NCBI GenBank assembly: GCA_016867375.1
Contig: VGJQ01000003.1
Span: forward strand, 1-47,532
Length of the DNA stretch: 47,532 nt
Direction of reading: 5' to 3'
From: Candidatus Kaiserbacteria bacterium
Lineage (GTDB): Bacteria; Patescibacteriota; Minisyncoccia; Phycocordibacterales; UBA2100
Under the pieces are notes generated by a model, which did not search any database, had not been told where the DNA came from, and saw nothing but the letters and a program-made list of their open reading frames with translations. This document shows positions 2,807 through 46,463 of the stretch, piece after piece. Position numbers and translations under genes: made by a program. Within the stretch, counting starts at the first letter, position 1; each line of letters opens with the position of its first letter.

Positions 2807-3286
2807 ATGGGATTTTTTAGCAACATATTCGGGGGTCGCAAAAAGCTCAATGTCAGCATTGACATCAGTGGTATTGAACTTAGCGCGGAACAAAAGGCGT
2901 TGTTCGACAAAATCGAGAATACGAAAGAGCGCATGTTCATAACCGGCAAAGCCGGAACTGGTAAATCGGTGCTTTTGCAATATTTCCGCGCCAATACAAA
3001 AAAGCAGACGGTCGTTTGTGCGTTCACTGGTGTTGCCGCGCTCAATGTCGGCGGACAGACAATAAATTCACTTTTTAAAATTCCGCCAGGATTTATTCAT
3101 CTTGACCGGCTAACGCTCAGTCAAAAGACGGCAACGCTCTTGCGCCATATTAATACGGTTGTGATTGATGAAGTTTCAATGGTTCGCGCGGACATGATGG
3201 ATGCGATAGATGTTCTGTTGCGTAAAGCACGAGGCAACGACATTCCGTTCGGCGGTGTACAAATCGTGATGTTCGGGGATTTATGA
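2807..3286 (+). pseudogene. Pif1/RecD-family helicase, N-terminal fragment only
   Basis: Walker A GKAGTGKS and Walker B VVIDEVSM. It ends at MFGDL just before the expected QLPPV motif. The stop abuts a 25-nt palindrome, and no C-terminal half is found in any frame downstream. Confidence 0.75.
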
Positions 3287-3310
3287 TTGTCGAGGTCAGA
3301 CCTCGACAAT
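3286..3310. repeat. perfect 25-nt palindrome P1 (attgtcgaggtc-a-gacctcgacaat)
   Basis: Read directly: 12-nt arms around a 1-nt centre. The 21-nt core at 3288-3308 is identical to 4320-4340. Confidence 0.95.
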
Positions 3311-3343
3311 ACCGCCACGCTTTTCACACTCATCTCCCTTATA

Positions 3344-3446
3344 ATCATCACCTGGAAATATCTCGCTACGAGGAAGCTGTCGAAGTAGATACCACGGACT
3401 CGCCACGACAACCATCACCGCACGCGATGAAGCGGGCAATACCACG
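3344..3446 (+). repeat. 103-bp exact direct repeat, copy 1 (copy 2 at 4197-4299)
   Basis: Base-for-base identical on manual comparison. Weaker homology extends over 3311-3464 versus 4164-4317. The repeat covers the last codons of a membrane-protein gene (..ITWKYLATRKLSK*) plus downstream sequence. Confidence 0.9.
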
Positions 3447-3804
3447 GCCCTCGTCTACACCGAGAAGCTTCCATCTCCCGACAGGAGAGACACTATCACT
3501 TTACTAGAGATCGCCTACAACGGCGCGACCACGACGCTCGATGCCTCCCTATCATACAAGTGGCGTCAAAACAAAGACGGCGCGTACAAGCTCTTCGTCT
3601 CGCATATCAAGACCAATGCGACGACTACAGAATCCCACTATCGACCCAAGAAAGATGTGACGGTCATGATAACCAAGCCTCAAGAGCTCGATGACTCTGA
3701 AAATGATGACGACTCGTATATCCGACCAACCAAGCTGACACTGCCGGGAATGGTGGTACCATATATACGAACGGAGGCGGGAAATATAATTATTGAATAT
3801 TAAA
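3345..3804 (+). pseudogene. 5'-truncated ORF (C-terminal part of a probable surface protein)
   Basis: Open frame SSPGNISLRG..TITARDEAGNTTALVYTEK...IIEY* with no start codon. Its first 34 codons recur at 4198-4299, where an ATG lies upstream at 4159 in the same frame. TITARDEAGNT resembles Ig-like surface-repeat motifs. Confidence 0.45.
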
Positions 3805-3806
3805 CT

Positions 3807-4241
3807 ATGCTTATACCTAGCAAACGAACACTTTTAGTTTCTTCAGGTGTGTTGAGTGCGGTAATTTTTGTATGGAATTATGTCGGCAACTATCGTATTT
3901 GTGACTTCCTCCTTACTGAAGGCTCTAGTGGAGGTTGTCCCACAATATTGACCGTGGTTGGAGTTTGTTTGTTACCCATTATTCCGTTATTCTTTTTCTC
4001 TCTCATCACCTACAAAATGCGTGATGTGGTCACTCAAGCTTGGATGCGCTTCGCGCTCGTGTGGATCCCACTCTCGATCGTCCTCGCCGCACTGACGCCG
4101 GATTCTCCTGCAGGAGGTTTCGGTCCACAGATAAGTCTCGGCAAAGGGGATACGGTGTTTGTCATGTCACTCCTTTTCGTCCTCATCTCACTCACCATCA
4201 TCACCTGGAAATATCTCGCTACGAGGAAGCTGTCGAAGTAG
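3807..4241 (+). CDS. hypothetical membrane protein
   Basis: 144-aa ORF with about 4 TM segments. Its 3' end is duplicated as an orphan fragment at 3311-3385. Confidence 0.6.
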   Translation: MLIPSKRTLLVSSGVLSAVIFVWNYVGNYRICDFLLTEGSSGGCPTILTVVGVCLLPIIPLFFFSLITYKMRDVVTQAWMRFALVWIPLSIVLAALTPDSPAGGFGPQISLGKGDTVFVMSLLFVLISLTIITWKYLATRKLSK

Positions 4242-4299
4242 ATACCACGGACTCGCCACGACAACCATCACCGCACGCGATGAAGCGGGCAATACCACG
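4197..4299 (+). repeat. 103-bp exact direct repeat, copy 2
   Basis: Identical to 3344-3446. Confidence 0.9.
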
Positions 4300-4315
4300 A
4301 TCCTCATTTATACCG

Positions 4316-4344
4316 ATACTGTCGAGGTCAGACCTCGACAGTAT
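4316..4344. repeat. perfect 29-nt palindrome P2 (atactgtcgaggtc-a-gacctcgacagtat)
   Basis: 14-nt arms around a 1-nt centre. It has the same 21-nt core as P1 but different outer arm bases that are still self-complementary. Confidence 0.95.
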
Positions 4345-4396
4345 GTTGGAATCGTCATCGATTTGGGTTTCTTCTTGCGTTGGAGAATACTTCTTC

Positions 4397-4425
4397 TTGG
4401 AAAAATCATATGTACAAGCTAGAAT
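4397..4425 (+). promoter_or_regulatory. sigma70-like promoter TTGGAA-17-TAGAAT
   Basis: Hexamers with a 17-nt spacer. The -10 ends 6 nt before the ATG at 4432, so the transcript would be leaderless. Confidence 0.4.
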
Positions 4426-4431
4426 GTTCAC

Positions 4432-4611
4432 ATGAGCACAGACCGCAGTAAAAACAAAGATGGTCAATTCGCCGCAAAGCGTTTTGATACTAAAATTTCC
4501 ACCATAGAAAAACAATATGGTGTCGATTTGGGTGTGCGTGGCGACATGAAACTCGGCAATTATCTTAAAGATAAGGGTTACCCTTCACTTTCCAAGATGC
4601 TCAAAAAATAG
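4432..4611 (+). CDS. small basic protein, 59 aa (below the ORF-track cutoff)
   Basis: Manual translation MSTDRSKNKDGQFAAKRFDTKISTIEKQYGVDLGVRGDMKLGNYLKDKGYPSLSKMLKK*. It lies 6 nt upstream of the next ORF. Confidence 0.5.
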   Translation: MSTDRSKNKDGQFAAKRFDTKISTIEKQYGVDLGVRGDMKLGNYLKDKGYPSLSKMLKK

Positions 4612-9462: not shown

Positions 9463-10131
9463 ATGGGGAAGCGGGGACCAAAACCAAAAAAGATACTCTC
9501 AGAAGAATGGTCTTCTCACCTTGCATATGCGATAGGACTACTTGCATCCGATGGATGCTTGTCTGCCCCGTCTCACGGATATTTGATTGATCTGACATCA
9601 AAAGATAGGGAACAGCTTGAAAATTTTATAACCTGTCTCGGTGTGCCGTTCAAGATTACAAGAAAATTAGGAGGAAACGGAAAAGGGTACTTACGCGTAC
9701 AGTTCAAGAATATTACCTTCTATACTTTCCTAATCTCTGTGGGATTGACCCCAGCAAAGTCAAAGACAATCGGCGCCTTGAATATTCCCGACGCATATTT
9801 CTTTGATTTTTTGCGTGGACTCTTCGATGGCGATGGAAGTACATACTCATATTGGGATAAAAGATGGCGTTCGAGCTTTATGTTCTATCTTACTTTTGTG
9901 TCAGCGAGCCCTCTATTCATCAACTGGCTTCGAGAGAATATAGCAAGACTTTCCGGTGCGAGAGGTCATATTTCGGGTGCCAAAAGAGGGGTTCTTTATC
10001 AGCTTCGATATGCAAAAAAAGATGCTCTCGTGATCTTGAAGAAAATGTACAAAAAGAAAGAAGTTGTTTGCTTGCGGCGCAAAAGATTGAAAATAGAAGA
10101 AATGTTGCGTATAGTGGGGGAGTCATTGTAG
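9463..10131 (+). CDS. free-standing double-motif LAGLIDADG homing endonuclease
   Basis: Two motifs, LAYAIGLLASDGCL and FLRGLFDGDGS. GC is visibly lower than in rplS. It is not embedded in any host gene. Confidence 0.8.
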   Translation: MGKRGPKPKKILSEEWSSHLAYAIGLLASDGCLSAPSHGYLIDLTSKDREQLENFITCLGVPFKITRKLGGNGKGYLRVQFKNITFYTFLISVGLTPAKSKTIGALNIPDAYFFDFLRGLFDGDGSTYSYWDKRWRSSFMFYLTFVSASPLFINWLRENIARLSGARGHISGAKRGVLYQLRYAKKDALVILKKMYKKKEVVCLRRKRLKIEEMLRIVGESL

Positions 10132-10162
10132 TCTTGCAATGGAGATTATTTGACAGATGCTT

Positions 10163-10244
10163 GCGCAGGTGGCGGAACTGGTATACGCGTACGTTTGAGG
10201 GGCGTATGGAGCAATCCTTGGGGGTTCAAGTCCCCCCCTGCGCA
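10163..10244 (+). tRNA. tRNA-Leu (anticodon GAG), class II with long variable arm
   Basis: Acceptor gcgcagg/cctgcgc, anticodon stem tacgt/gcgta with loop ttgaggg, 13-nt variable arm, T-arm ggggg-ttcaagt-ccccc. Confidence 0.85.
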
Positions 10245-10253
10245 CAAAATGCC

Positions 10254-10278
10254 AAAACCGGAGTATTGCTCCGGTTTT
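10254..10278 (+). terminator. intrinsic terminator after tRNA-Leu
   Basis: aaaaccggag-tattg-ctccggtttt hairpin with a U-tail. Confidence 0.7.
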
Positions 10279-10308
10279 GTCGCTTTTTGTAGCAAGAGGG
10301 GGAGACAC

Positions 10309-10397
10309 AAAAGTGACACCCCTTTTGCTGAAATGATGAACATATGTCATCCTTCACTGATGATGAGGGCACCACAAAGCTCTTCGATAGTCCGTAA
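10309..10397 (+). pseudogene. orphan 5' UTR plus first 17 codons of a PduO-type adenosyltransferase gene
   Basis: It aligns by eye with 13769-13862 (aaaagtgacacc..atgatgaa..tatgtcat.cttcactg...acaaagctcttcgatagtccg). It translates to [17 protein letters not shown] and then stops. Confidence 0.75.
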
Positions 10398-20377: not shown

Positions 20378-20495
20378 CAAGGTGTACGCCGATCTTATTA
20401 TCGCGGCGTGCAAAAAGGTCTCTGATTTTATCGCAGGATTCACGAAAGAAGACTTCATGCACATTCAACTTGAATGTCAAAAGTCTGACTTTTGA
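20367..20495 (+). pseudogene. HepT (DUF86/HEPN) toxin, N-terminal 42 codons only
   Basis: ATGA overlap with the MNT gene. MKDSKVYADLIIAACKKVSDFIAGFTKEDF looks like a DUF86 N-terminus, but it lacks the RNxxxH region. The stop lies inside palindrome P3. Confidence 0.65.
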
Positions 20496-20499
20496 CATT
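20473..20499. repeat. perfect 27-nt palindrome P3 (aatgtcaaaagtc-t-gacttttgacatt)
   Basis: 13-nt arms around a 1-nt centre, read directly. Confidence 0.95.
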
Positions 20500-21449: not shown

Positions 21450-21480
21450 AAGCCAAGCGTCGCTTGGCTTTTTGTGTTTG
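21450..21480 (+). terminator. intrinsic terminator
   Basis: aagccaagc-gtc-gcttggctt followed by ttt. Confidence 0.65.
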
Positions 21481-21527
21481 TGGCATAATCTAAGGCGTAA
21501 TCCGTAAGGCGTCGCCTTACGGATTGT

Positions 21528-38208: not shown

Positions 38209-38847
38209 ATGAAAGAGGTGATTCAGAAGGTGGAAGAAGCGGTCCGTGAGTTCATGGCAGTGCAGGATAAGGCCCATGACTGGCATCATATCCATCGGGT
38301 GCGCACAATGGCGTTGCGGATTGCTGCATTTGAGGGAGGCGATACAGAGCTCATCGAACTCGCGGCGCTCGTCCACGATGTCGGCGATTATAAGTTCCAT
38401 GAGAGCAAGGAAGTGGGCGAGCAAGCCGCAGTCGATCTCATGGCACGTTATGGCGTCCCACAGCGGATGGTTGAGAAGGCGGTCGATATTATGCGGCGCG
38501 TGTCATTCAAGGGTCTCGATGTTGCCGACGACATGCCGACACTTGAGGGAAAGATCGTGCAAGACGCGGATCGTCTCGATGCGATTGGCGCGATCGCGAT
38601 CGCGCGCACTTTCACGTATGGCGGCACCAAAGGTCGATCCATGCATGATCCGGATGCTCCGCTCACGATACGTTCTTCCGAAGAATATTTGATAGGAAAC
38701 CGTTCGAGCATTCACCACTTCTTCGACAAACTCTTGCATCTGAAGAATCGACTGCATACGAAGACCGCACGAGAGATCGCGACCGAACGACATACCTTCA
38801 TGGAAGAGTTCATCCGCCGTTTCTTAAGAGAATGGGATGGCAAATAA
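38209..38847 (+). CDS. HD-domain phosphohydrolase
   Basis: HDWHHIHRV ... LVHDVGD ... DADRLDAIGA motifs. Confidence 0.8.
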   Translation: MKEVIQKVEEAVREFMAVQDKAHDWHHIHRVRTMALRIAAFEGGDTELIELAALVHDVGDYKFHESKEVGEQAAVDLMARYGVPQRMVEKAVDIMRRVSFKGLDVADDMPTLEGKIVQDADRLDAIGAIAIARTFTYGGTKGRSMHDPDAPLTIRSSEEYLIGNRSSIHHFFDKLLHLKNRLHTKTAREIATERHTFMEEFIRRFLREWDGK

Positions 38848-40412: not shown

Positions 40413-40455
40413 TTAAAAGGCGACGCCTTTTAGGCAAAAAGGCGTCGCCTTTTTC
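40413..40455 (+). terminator. long inverted repeat / terminator
   Basis: aaaaggcgacgcctttt-aggc-aaaaaggcgtcgccttttt. Confidence 0.6.
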
Positions 40456-45860: not shown

Positions 45861-45892
45861 AAACAGGCGGACCCTATGGGTCCGCCTGTTTT
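45861..45892 (+). terminator. intrinsic terminator
   Basis: aaacaggcggaccc-tat-gggtccgcctgttt. Confidence 0.75.
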
Positions 45893-46382: not shown

Positions 46383-46410
46383 AGCGGCCGCGACATACAT
46401 GTCGCGGCCG
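46383..46410. terminator. bidirectional hairpin between convergent genes
   Basis: gcggccgcgaca-taca-tgtcgcggccgc, a 12-bp stem. Confidence 0.65.
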
Positions 46411-46463
46411 CTATCTTTCTGAATTCACTACCTCCTATACCACTAACCACTAGTGGCTATCCA

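Follow-up and report, generated by a model that had tools for sequence, protein, structure and literature searches.

Repetitive extragenic palindromes (REPs) with a flanking gene for a REP-associated tyrosine transposase (RAYT, or TnpA_REP), together known as REPtrons, are well described in E. coli and Pseudomonas (PMC2817692, PMC3116915, PMC3479197), and both the structure of TnpA_REP with REP and the cleavage reaction have been described for E. coli (PMC3479197). Here, we analysed a 47,532-nt stretch of a Candidatus Kaiserbacteria genome (assembly GCA_016867375.1, contig VGJQ01000003.1, positions 1 to 47,532 of the forward strand; hereafter, the window), in which two perfect palindromes with a common core, P1 and P2, lie at joints between gene fragments. 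It is very likely that P1 and P2 belong to a family of REP-like palindromes, and we consider it probable that this family is maintained in Patescibacteria, also called the candidate phyla radiation (CPR), by an IS200-like HUH transposase of the RAYT/TnpA_REP type. The locus would then be a trace left locally by a selfish repeat of the REP/RAYT type, and not an artefact or an unknown recombination system. Systems of this type would also reach the ultra-small bacteria of the CPR, where their form is atypical, with a copy inside the transposase gene and frequent in-frame copies in essential genes.

Several features of known systems bear on the comparison. REPs that lie in frame within genes are documented, including in uvr genes and tRNA synthetase genes (PMC3733652). 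In TnpA_REP subclass 2.4, REP copies are found within the transposase gene, between the HUH motif and the Y motif, with the frame kept (PMC6006769). Some REP-associated classes (2.6/3) lack the GT[AG]G foot, and symmetric “double-foot” REPs exist (PMC6006769). REPs are also targets for insertion sequences (PMC1525189). The complete-genome survey of Quentin et al. 2018 makes no mention of Parcubacteria or Saccharibacteria (PMC6006769), and a limited literature search found no paper that links REP/RAYT systems to CPR/Patescibacteria.

The core shared by P1 and P2 is the 21-mer TGTCGAGGTCAGACCTCGACA, at 3288–3308 and 4320–4340. A search of the window found it at exactly these two sites, within perfect palindromes of 25 and 29 nt, as the original prediction had stated; there is no third site in the window within 3 mismatches, and 100 dinucleotide-preserving shuffles of the window gave 0 matches. 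Palindromes with 12-nt arms are expected by chance ~0.003 times in 47.5 kb (calculated). Folded as single-stranded DNA hairpins, P1 reaches -11.2 kcal/mol and P2 -14.0 kcal/mol (z = -4.4 and -6.6, respectively, versus shuffled controls). The centre base on the + strand is A in both. An ATTTAT motif lies 5ʹ of both palindromes, which is within chance. No stop codon occurs in the core unit in any of the three frames on either strand (VEVRPR / SRSDLD / CRGQTST), and in-frame copies are tolerated for this reason.

Copies of the core are found well beyond this locus, in JGI metagenomes and in a Saccharibacteria contig, contrary to the scenario, raised with the original prediction, of palindromes that occur only here. 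With the centre base left free, the core was found at seven loci in JGI metagenome contigs. Three of these (L003, L001 and L006) are the same Lloydbacteria scaffold sequence, with the core TGTCGAGGTC[G/C]GACCTCGACA, identical at 20 of 21 positions. At this locus, the core lies on either side of a 226-aa open reading frame (ORF), one copy overlaps the stop codon, and a third is in frame inside; the upstream copy in L003, at ~30–52, is degenerate (TTGTCGAGGTCGGACCTCAATAG, read by eye). At another locus, L007, uvrC contains in frame (..CTPCSVEVRPRQGGEDCRGLTSTDGRPCKPC..) an inverted doublet of the identical A/T-centred 21-mer, its two copies 34 nt apart, and a related palindrome, TGTTGGAGGTCTGACCTCCAACA, follows further on, also in frame, making three in-frame copies in total. 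In L002 and L005, a unit followed by a degenerate second unit is in frame in a 958-codon ORF, the L002 copy being the identical 21-mer. The in-frame metagenome copies include one in an apparent tRNA-synthetase gene (named from sequence motifs only). Among GTDB genomes, a 19-nt form of the core occurs in 28 stretches. One 239-kb Saccharibacteria contig carries seven copies of the 19-mer, with the consensus CTGGTCGAGGTCSGACCTCGACCAG: two bracket a 205-aa transposase homologue and have opposite centre bases, one is in frame in gatB (..ILVEVGPRPAV..), and others are in 235- and 359-codon ORFs. The core was not found in viral contigs.

Some matches to the core were set aside. The 19–21-mer matches in high-GC genomes (Streptomyces, L004 and others) are coding coincidences, with ~9 chance matches expected in 596 Gb (calculated); that in L004 (67% GC) reads ..LSRSDLD.. 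in a GspE-like N-domain. In seven Streptomyces stretches (L011, L014, L015, L024, L026, L030 and L036), the 19-mer GTCGAGGTC[A/T]GACCTCGAC stands beside a conserved ..GGGAGGATCATCGGGCGGCGGCG.. flank. This is a separate conserved locus, unrelated to the CPR family.

The 226-aa ORF between the Lloydbacteria copies encodes a transposase of the IS200-like kind: it scores 28.3 bits on Pfam Y1_Tnp, where the cut-off is 23. The sole NCBIfam match of the transposase is REP_Tyr_transpos, the REP-associated tyrosine transposase. When a profile of 25 homologues was compared with the PDB, the best match was E. coli TnpA_REP (4ER8), a weak match (E=0.19) in which the HUH and Y motifs align; NHFHLLL and YIHLNP are conserved in the 25 transposase sequences. 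When GTDB genomes were scanned with the two transposases as an alignment, 37 loci emerged (L125–L161), nearly all in Patescibacteria. At 27 of the 37 loci, perfect palindromes of one family lie within ~215 nt of the gene on each side; at 33, they do so on at least one side. Copies number 3–6 per 2–4-kb REPtron locus. Over 114 non-redundant copies, AGG/CCT is invariant at the apex and the consensus is (C)RAGGYY-N-RRCCTY(G). The outer stem is specific to the lineage, with paired substitutions between genomes. P1 and P2 fit this plan exactly.

At 16 of the 37 loci, a palindrome also lies inside the transposase ORF, usually 135–190 nt from the start and upstream of the HUH motif (for example, L126:878-908, L128:435-487, L134:1683-1705 and L136:436-472). 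The segment that carries it is variable in length and reads (L/I/V)EV(Q/E/S/G)P(P/R/L). At all 16 loci, the internal copy matches the lineage-specific flanking copies of its own genome, a pattern implying that the unit has re-inserted repeatedly, has been converted, or serves some function, for example autoregulation. Two explanations that the original prediction had listed as possible can be revisited here. A palindrome-associated element is borne out in substance, the core being part of a dispersed family that flanks genes for IS200-like/RAYT-like HUH transposases. A recognition site for an unknown recombinase or nuclease is half right: a site is supported in substance, but the class of the enzyme, an HUH tyrosine transposase, is not unknown, because the core family flanks such genes in many Patescibacteria.

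How does this family compare with described systems? Like REP/REPIN-RAYT systems, it has dispersed short hairpin repeats, a Y1 HUH gene with its cognate repeat on either side, a lineage-specific repeat that co-varies with the transposase, and inverted doublets (L007, L132). Unlike those systems, it has no foot, its units are perfect palindromes with a 1–5-nt centre and a conserved apex, its copies are few (7 per 239 kb) and often intragenic, and its transposase is distant and not encoded in the window. The in-frame unit inside the transposase gene resembles that of TnpA_REP subclass 2.4, except that the CPR copy is upstream of the HUH motif and not between HUH and Y. Lack of GT[AG]G is shared with the structures associated with classes 2.6/3. 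In-frame units, single or dimeric, that add short peptides are also known from intragenic REPs and from Rickettsia palindromic elements (RPEs) (PMC3733652). RPE-1, however, is 100–150 bp long whereas CPR units are 21–39 bp, and the units in the window are at gene-fragment joints, not in frame in intact genes. The family is not a canonical REP family, because it lacks the foot, its transposase is only distantly related to curated RAYTs, and its copies are not mostly extragenic (in frame in uvrC (three), gatB, and the 958-, 235- and 359-codon ORFs). Judged by its sequence organization, the CPR palindrome family appears to work like a REPtron, in an atypical form. In the annotation of CPR genomes, the 21–39-nt units would account for some truncated genes as well as for short, unexpected peptide insertions (VEVRPR, SRSDLD, RGxTST and relatives).

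Other classes of palindromic feature do not account for P1 and P2. They are not intrinsic terminators, having no terminator-scan match and no T run after either; nor are they known structured RNAs, since only four tRNAs in the window reach the Rfam gathering score. Integron attC sites are imperfect palindromes of 57–141 bp with R''/L''-L'/R' cores, whereas P1 and P2 are perfect palindromes of 21–29 nt without GTTRRRY; no integrase was found among the ORFs examined around the segment, the rest of the ORFs in the window not having been scanned for intI. The anatomy of P1 and P2 does not match CRISPR or phage ends.

We now turn to the genes at the two joints (Table 1). The original prediction that P1 and P2 coincide with three gene truncation points was confirmed by Pfam coverage, by an orthologue of the helicase and by comparison of paralogues. 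The helicase ORF covers positions 2–148 of the 223 in the Pfam PIF1 profile. An intact 457-aa orthologue in a Moraniibacteriota metagenome-assembled genome (MAG), L039, is 90% identical over the 159 residues and continues with YQLPPIV after VMFGDL. The orphan membrane-gene tail is diverged from the full membrane gene over its first 33 nt and identical over its last 45. Two joints between unrelated sequences are proposed: at P1, helicase codon 159 would meet the tail of a membrane gene, and at P2, codon ~27 of ORF2B would meet the promoter region of the next gene, with no continuous gene interrupted by either palindrome. There is a fourth truncation, since ORF2 is itself truncated at its 5ʹ end; no palindrome marks that end.

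Table 1. Features at and around P1 and P2, with positions in the window.
Feature	Coordinates	Strand	Description
PIF1/RecD-like helicase fragment	2807..3286	+	N-terminal 159 codons and stop, ends ..VMFGDL; Pfam PIF1 E=7e-28
P1	3286-3310	.	25-nt perfect palindrome ATTGTCGAGGTCAGACCTCGACAAT, 12-nt arms, core 3288-3308; REP-like hairpin unit
Orphan membrane-gene 3ʹ end	3311..3388	+	(..NTATLFTLISLIIITWKYLATRKLSK*), from a paralogue of the membrane gene 3807-4241
R1	3344..3446	+	First exact 103-nt copy; spans membrane-gene stop and start of ORF2 homology
ORF2A	3381..3803	+	~140-aa, 5ʹ-truncated C-terminal fragment of an LCAT-like surface-protein gene
Small membrane-protein gene	3807..4241	+	Complete, 144 aa
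R2	4197..4299	+	Second exact 103-nt copy
ORF2B	4234..4316	+	First ~27 codons of another, diverged copy of ORF2, which P2 cuts off after ..NTTILIYTD
P2	4316-4344	.	29-nt perfect palindrome ATACTGTCGAGGTCAGACCTCGACAGTAT, 14-nt arms, core 4320-4340; REP-like hairpin unit
P2 right flank	4345..4431	+	Unrelated to ORF2 or helicase; promoter-like site 4397-4425 before 59-aa gene at 4432

The arms of P1 resemble native sequence on both sides. The left arm is similar to the native helicase gene 14 nt past the break (L039 CCAATTGTCGCGGATAGA vs window GATTGTCGAGGTCAGA; ATTGTCG.GG): between L039:8460-8500 (ATTGTCGCGGATAGA) and the left arm at 3276–3300 of the window (ATTGTCGAGGTCAGA), 12 of 15 positions match, and the intervening 14 nt are absent from the window. 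The right arm resembles native membrane-gene sequence (AGTCTCGGCAAA vs GACCTCGACAA). These likenesses hint at microhomology-guided joining and are not proof of it.

What lies between P1 and P2? The segment had been described as scrambled, a view that does not hold: a native gene cassette is partly repeated in tandem here. The repeating unit, [ORF2 + membrane gene], is 853 bp long and present in 1.2 copies, which run membrane tail, ORF2A, membrane gene, ORF2B head. Alignment confirmed the predicted exact repeat R of 103 bp (R1 and R2), which is part of a direct repeat, 3320–3463 and 4173–4316, that is 92% identical. Outside the 103-nt block, the differences between the copies are conservative and synonymous (TLFTLISLII vs LLFVLISLTI; ALVYTE vs ILIYTD), and the ILIYT variant is natural, occurring in the relative P0006 as NTTILIYTEKLPSP. 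Therefore, the copies are diverged paralogues with a recent crossover or conversion tract and not mutated duplicates, and the exact 103-nt repeat would be such a tract between diverged tandem copies of the cassette.

The cassette can be followed in relatives. The ORF2 frame is open from 3345 to 3803 (152 codons) with no ATG, GTG or TTG before 3657 (codon 105). Its homologues P0001–P0011 are the C-terminal parts of longer proteins, and P0001–P0005 reach 70–130 residues further upstream. The first gene of the window, 38–2116 (Pfam LCAT), is of the same family as ORF2. The membrane protein has 44 homologues, mostly of 130–150 aa, in a family that is widespread in CPR metagenomes. In L119–L122 the gene order is LCAT-like gene, small membrane protein, LCAT 3ʹ fragment, membrane protein; in L123/L124 an LCAT-like gene with an ORF2-type C-terminus is followed by the membrane protein. 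The segment is collinear with these LCAT/membrane cassette arrays. The cassette pieces look native, because an LCAT-like gene and a membrane gene are immediately upstream (38–2522), and it is the helicase fragment that looks like the intruder at the locus. A fragment like ORF2 without a start is found at the same position in relatives (L119:~9800-10384); such fragments persist in cassette arrays.

Both joints are supported by assemblies of public sequencing runs. In Logan contigs from two Sequence Read Archive (SRA) runs, L008 (SRR7985589) and L009 (SRR16108666), the window is reproduced base-for-base from 152 and 170, respectively, through P1 to 3373. L010 (SRR16108666, with one further similar place) runs base-for-base from 4270 through P2 into ruvX and pilM. 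The joints at P1 and P2 are independently assembled, because contigs of two runs reproduce them exactly. L008/L009 and L010 break 30 nt inside R, at either end, as follows from k=31. The exact 59-aa and 171-aa proteins encoded downstream were found only in SRR7985589 and SRR16108666.

The two palindromes are extended beyond the core to different lengths, by 2 nt at P1 and 4 nt at P2. The earlier proposal that the symmetry is generated locally and not just copied gains support from the family as a whole. In a crude census, 19 of 99 copies extend at least 3 nt past the core shared by their locus (1.5 expected), and ~11 of these extensions remain when copies of other subfamilies are set aside, with lengths up to 9–12 nt. 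A clean comparison is between the copies inside two transposase ORFs, L126:878-908 and L128:435-487. The latter is a 53-nt perfect palindrome whose upstream 12 nt, CCTCTCTTTTCC (four extra codons, PSLF, relative to L126), repeat the coding flank downstream, GGAAAAGAGAGG, in inverted form. Intrastrand template switching of the Ripley type (quasipalindrome correction) can perfect or lengthen a hairpin by an inverted copy of its flank. The L128 pattern is what such switching across the hairpin would be expected to produce. We propose that copy-specific extensions arise in this way, one flank being copied inverted to the other side of the hairpin; the extensions of P1 and P2 would be a smaller instance. 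Unlike the element families above, quasipalindrome correction is a general mutational process, and its operation here is suggested by sequence comparison. If this is correct, copy-specific extensions provide a sequence-level handle on hairpin-driven template switching.

How did REP-like units come to lie at both joints? By analogy with E. coli TnpA_REP, the cognate transposase would bind and cut the units as single-stranded hairpins, and the units would spread in this way. Units might then have inserted into the helicase gene and into a neighbouring array of LCAT-like/membrane-protein cassettes, with copies in a paralogue of the membrane gene, in ORF2B and ahead of the 59-aa gene. Recombination at or between these units, whether by homologous exchange between identical 21–29-bp repeats, by transposase cleavage and rejoining of the kind demonstrated in vitro for TnpA_REP, or by replication template switching at stalled hairpins, could have deleted the intervening DNA, leaving one unit per joint and three truncated genes. 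REP sequences of enterobacteria have reportedly been found at the join-points of duplications and deletions (Shyamala, Schneider & Ames 1990). As at those join-points, a REP unit is exactly at each novel joint; unlike them, where parental REPs are known on both sides, both joints in the window carry symmetric flank extensions. We put forward this specific history of REP-mediated deletion at both joints tentatively, as quite possible although somewhat short of probable.

Several observations weigh against the REP/RAYT interpretation or against the deletion history built on it. The transposase scores 30–36 bits on the NCBIfam RAYT model, far under the cut-off of 80. A tblastn search found no transposase of the RAYT-like family in the window, and with only two copies of the core present, the RAYT assignment here rests on sequence identity with copies elsewhere. 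There is no conserved base outside the stem in the 114 copies, and no GTAG/GTGG or CGTC foot. Covariation of the outer stem between genomes (two-sided changes in 133 cells vs 50 in shuffles; 85% of cells paired vs 31–46% with partners slid) is partly circular, because the copies were chosen as perfect palindromes, which forces the inner positions to pair; the evidence free of this circularity is that palindromes of different sequence but one plan flank homologous transposase genes. From its sequence, the 4-nt symmetric extension of P2 is not what a crossover between REPs with different flanks would be expected to leave; it would need a second step or a form of joint formation that copies the flank. 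The order tail-R-U-R-head, where U is the 750-bp unique part, cannot be verified from k=31 contigs that break at R. Finally, the locus of the closest helicase orthologue, in L039, lacks synteny, a PilM-based GTDB scan gave no relative, and a protein search gave no intact allele above 68% identity; with no unrearranged allele found, histories of deletion, insertion and transposition are indistinguishable.

An alternative explanation is that P1 to P2 is a non-autonomous, PATE-like element of the IS200/IS605 type that took up the cassette as cargo and entered the helicase gene by peel-and-paste, with a later 3ʹ deletion. The segment is bounded exactly by P1 and P2, IS200/IS605 transposases act on subterminal hairpins (PMC6006769), and a circularly permuted 1.2-copy content is reminiscent of a circular intermediate; yet R has no hairpin, unlike the junction of a transposon circle. 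The shared centre base is what left and right ends of such an element would be expected to have, but centre bases are inconsistent around transposase genes across the family and are therefore an unreliable mark of orientation. Moreover, the sequence to the right of P2 does not continue the helicase gene, so that an extra deletion is required, and the collinearity of the cargo with the upstream LCAT-like and membrane genes and with the arrays of relatives suggests that it is native. Unlike a hairpin-ended transposon of the IS200/IS605 or PATE kind, the segment contains host gene fragments and no transposase, and no second copy of it was found in three collections. We regard this explanation as unlikely. 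The order of the segment could also be misassembled, the true order being helicase-P1-tail-R-head-P2, with 179 nt between the palindromes; U would then belong elsewhere, to a tandem array or a circle of 853 bp that shares R and may come from a strain living alongside. The contigs from the two runs stop at either end of R, and both paths fit the graph; just outside R, there are 13 mismatches in 41 aligned bases vs 0 in 103; and Logan has no contig on record that encodes the predicted partial product of U. However, R is shorter than common reads and is resolvable at larger k, and the assembler used for the window placed U between the copies. A separate U also needs an 853-bp circle or tandem array without other exits, whereas a short conversion or crossover tract between tandem paralogues gives the same mismatch pattern. 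We judge a misplaced U to be distinctly improbable; under it, the palindromes, all three truncations and the nature of P1 and P2 are unchanged.

The original prediction also raised foldback or hairpin-mediated break repair, and foldback artefacts of assembly or library. In such a case, the palindromes would have been made locally, by repair of a hairpin-capped break or by library/adapter foldback, with no mobile element involved. Their position exactly on breakpoints, their copy-specific extensions and the short similarity of the P1 left arm to the native helicase are in keeping with local origin. De novo foldback, however, would yield different cores at the two joints, whereas the 21-mer is identical at both and recurs in unrelated public assemblies, where it surrounds transposase genes and lies, in frame, inside conserved ones; break repair thus fails as the origin of the core. 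An artefact is contradicted by the recovery of the same joints from two independent runs and by the presence of the family in dozens of MAGs. We therefore consider a purely local origin hardly credible. Within the REP/RAYT interpretation, a stronger reading is that the CPR family actively drives the truncation of genes and the reduction of genomes, with P1 and P2 as recent scars. Hairpins would insert into genes in any of their stop-free frames and then serve as points of breakage or template switching; the formation of a joint would copy a few to a dozen flank bases inverted, so that a “grown” palindrome would be a scar readable in the sequence. We consider it unlikely that the family has this role.

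Neither the helicase fragment nor its surroundings point to a defence context: the fragment has only generic RecD/PIF1-like matches, and the two small proteins encoded downstream have none. The 171-aa protein downstream of P2 (4618–5133) has no Pfam, NCBIfam or PADLOC match. Its sequence includes LRNSQHIG, an R-x4-H motif like those of HEPN domains. This protein and the helicase fragment may be what is left of a small accessory island.

Other palindromes occur elsewhere in the window. An intergenic 27-nt perfect palindrome at 20473–20499, AATGTCAAAAGTCTGACTTTTGACATT, has the TGTC....GTC-N-GAC....GACA frame of P1 and P2 with an A/T-rich middle, and could be a decayed relative of them or an unrelated operator. 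A second intergenic set, with AAGGCG-W-CGCCTT / GCGTCGC centres, is found at 21450–21470, 21499–21525 and 40414–40454. Two units of this set form an inverted doublet with 17-nt arms at 40415–40453, and some of the set precede T runs and look like terminators. Within an ORF, at 38588–38605, is the perfect palindrome GCGCGATCGCGATCGCGC, a doubled HIP1-like GCGATCGC. Further long perfect palindromes are at 45861–45891 (AAACAGGCGGACCCTATGGGTCCGCCTGTTT) and 46383–46412 (AGCGGCCGCGACATACATGTCGCGGCCGCT).

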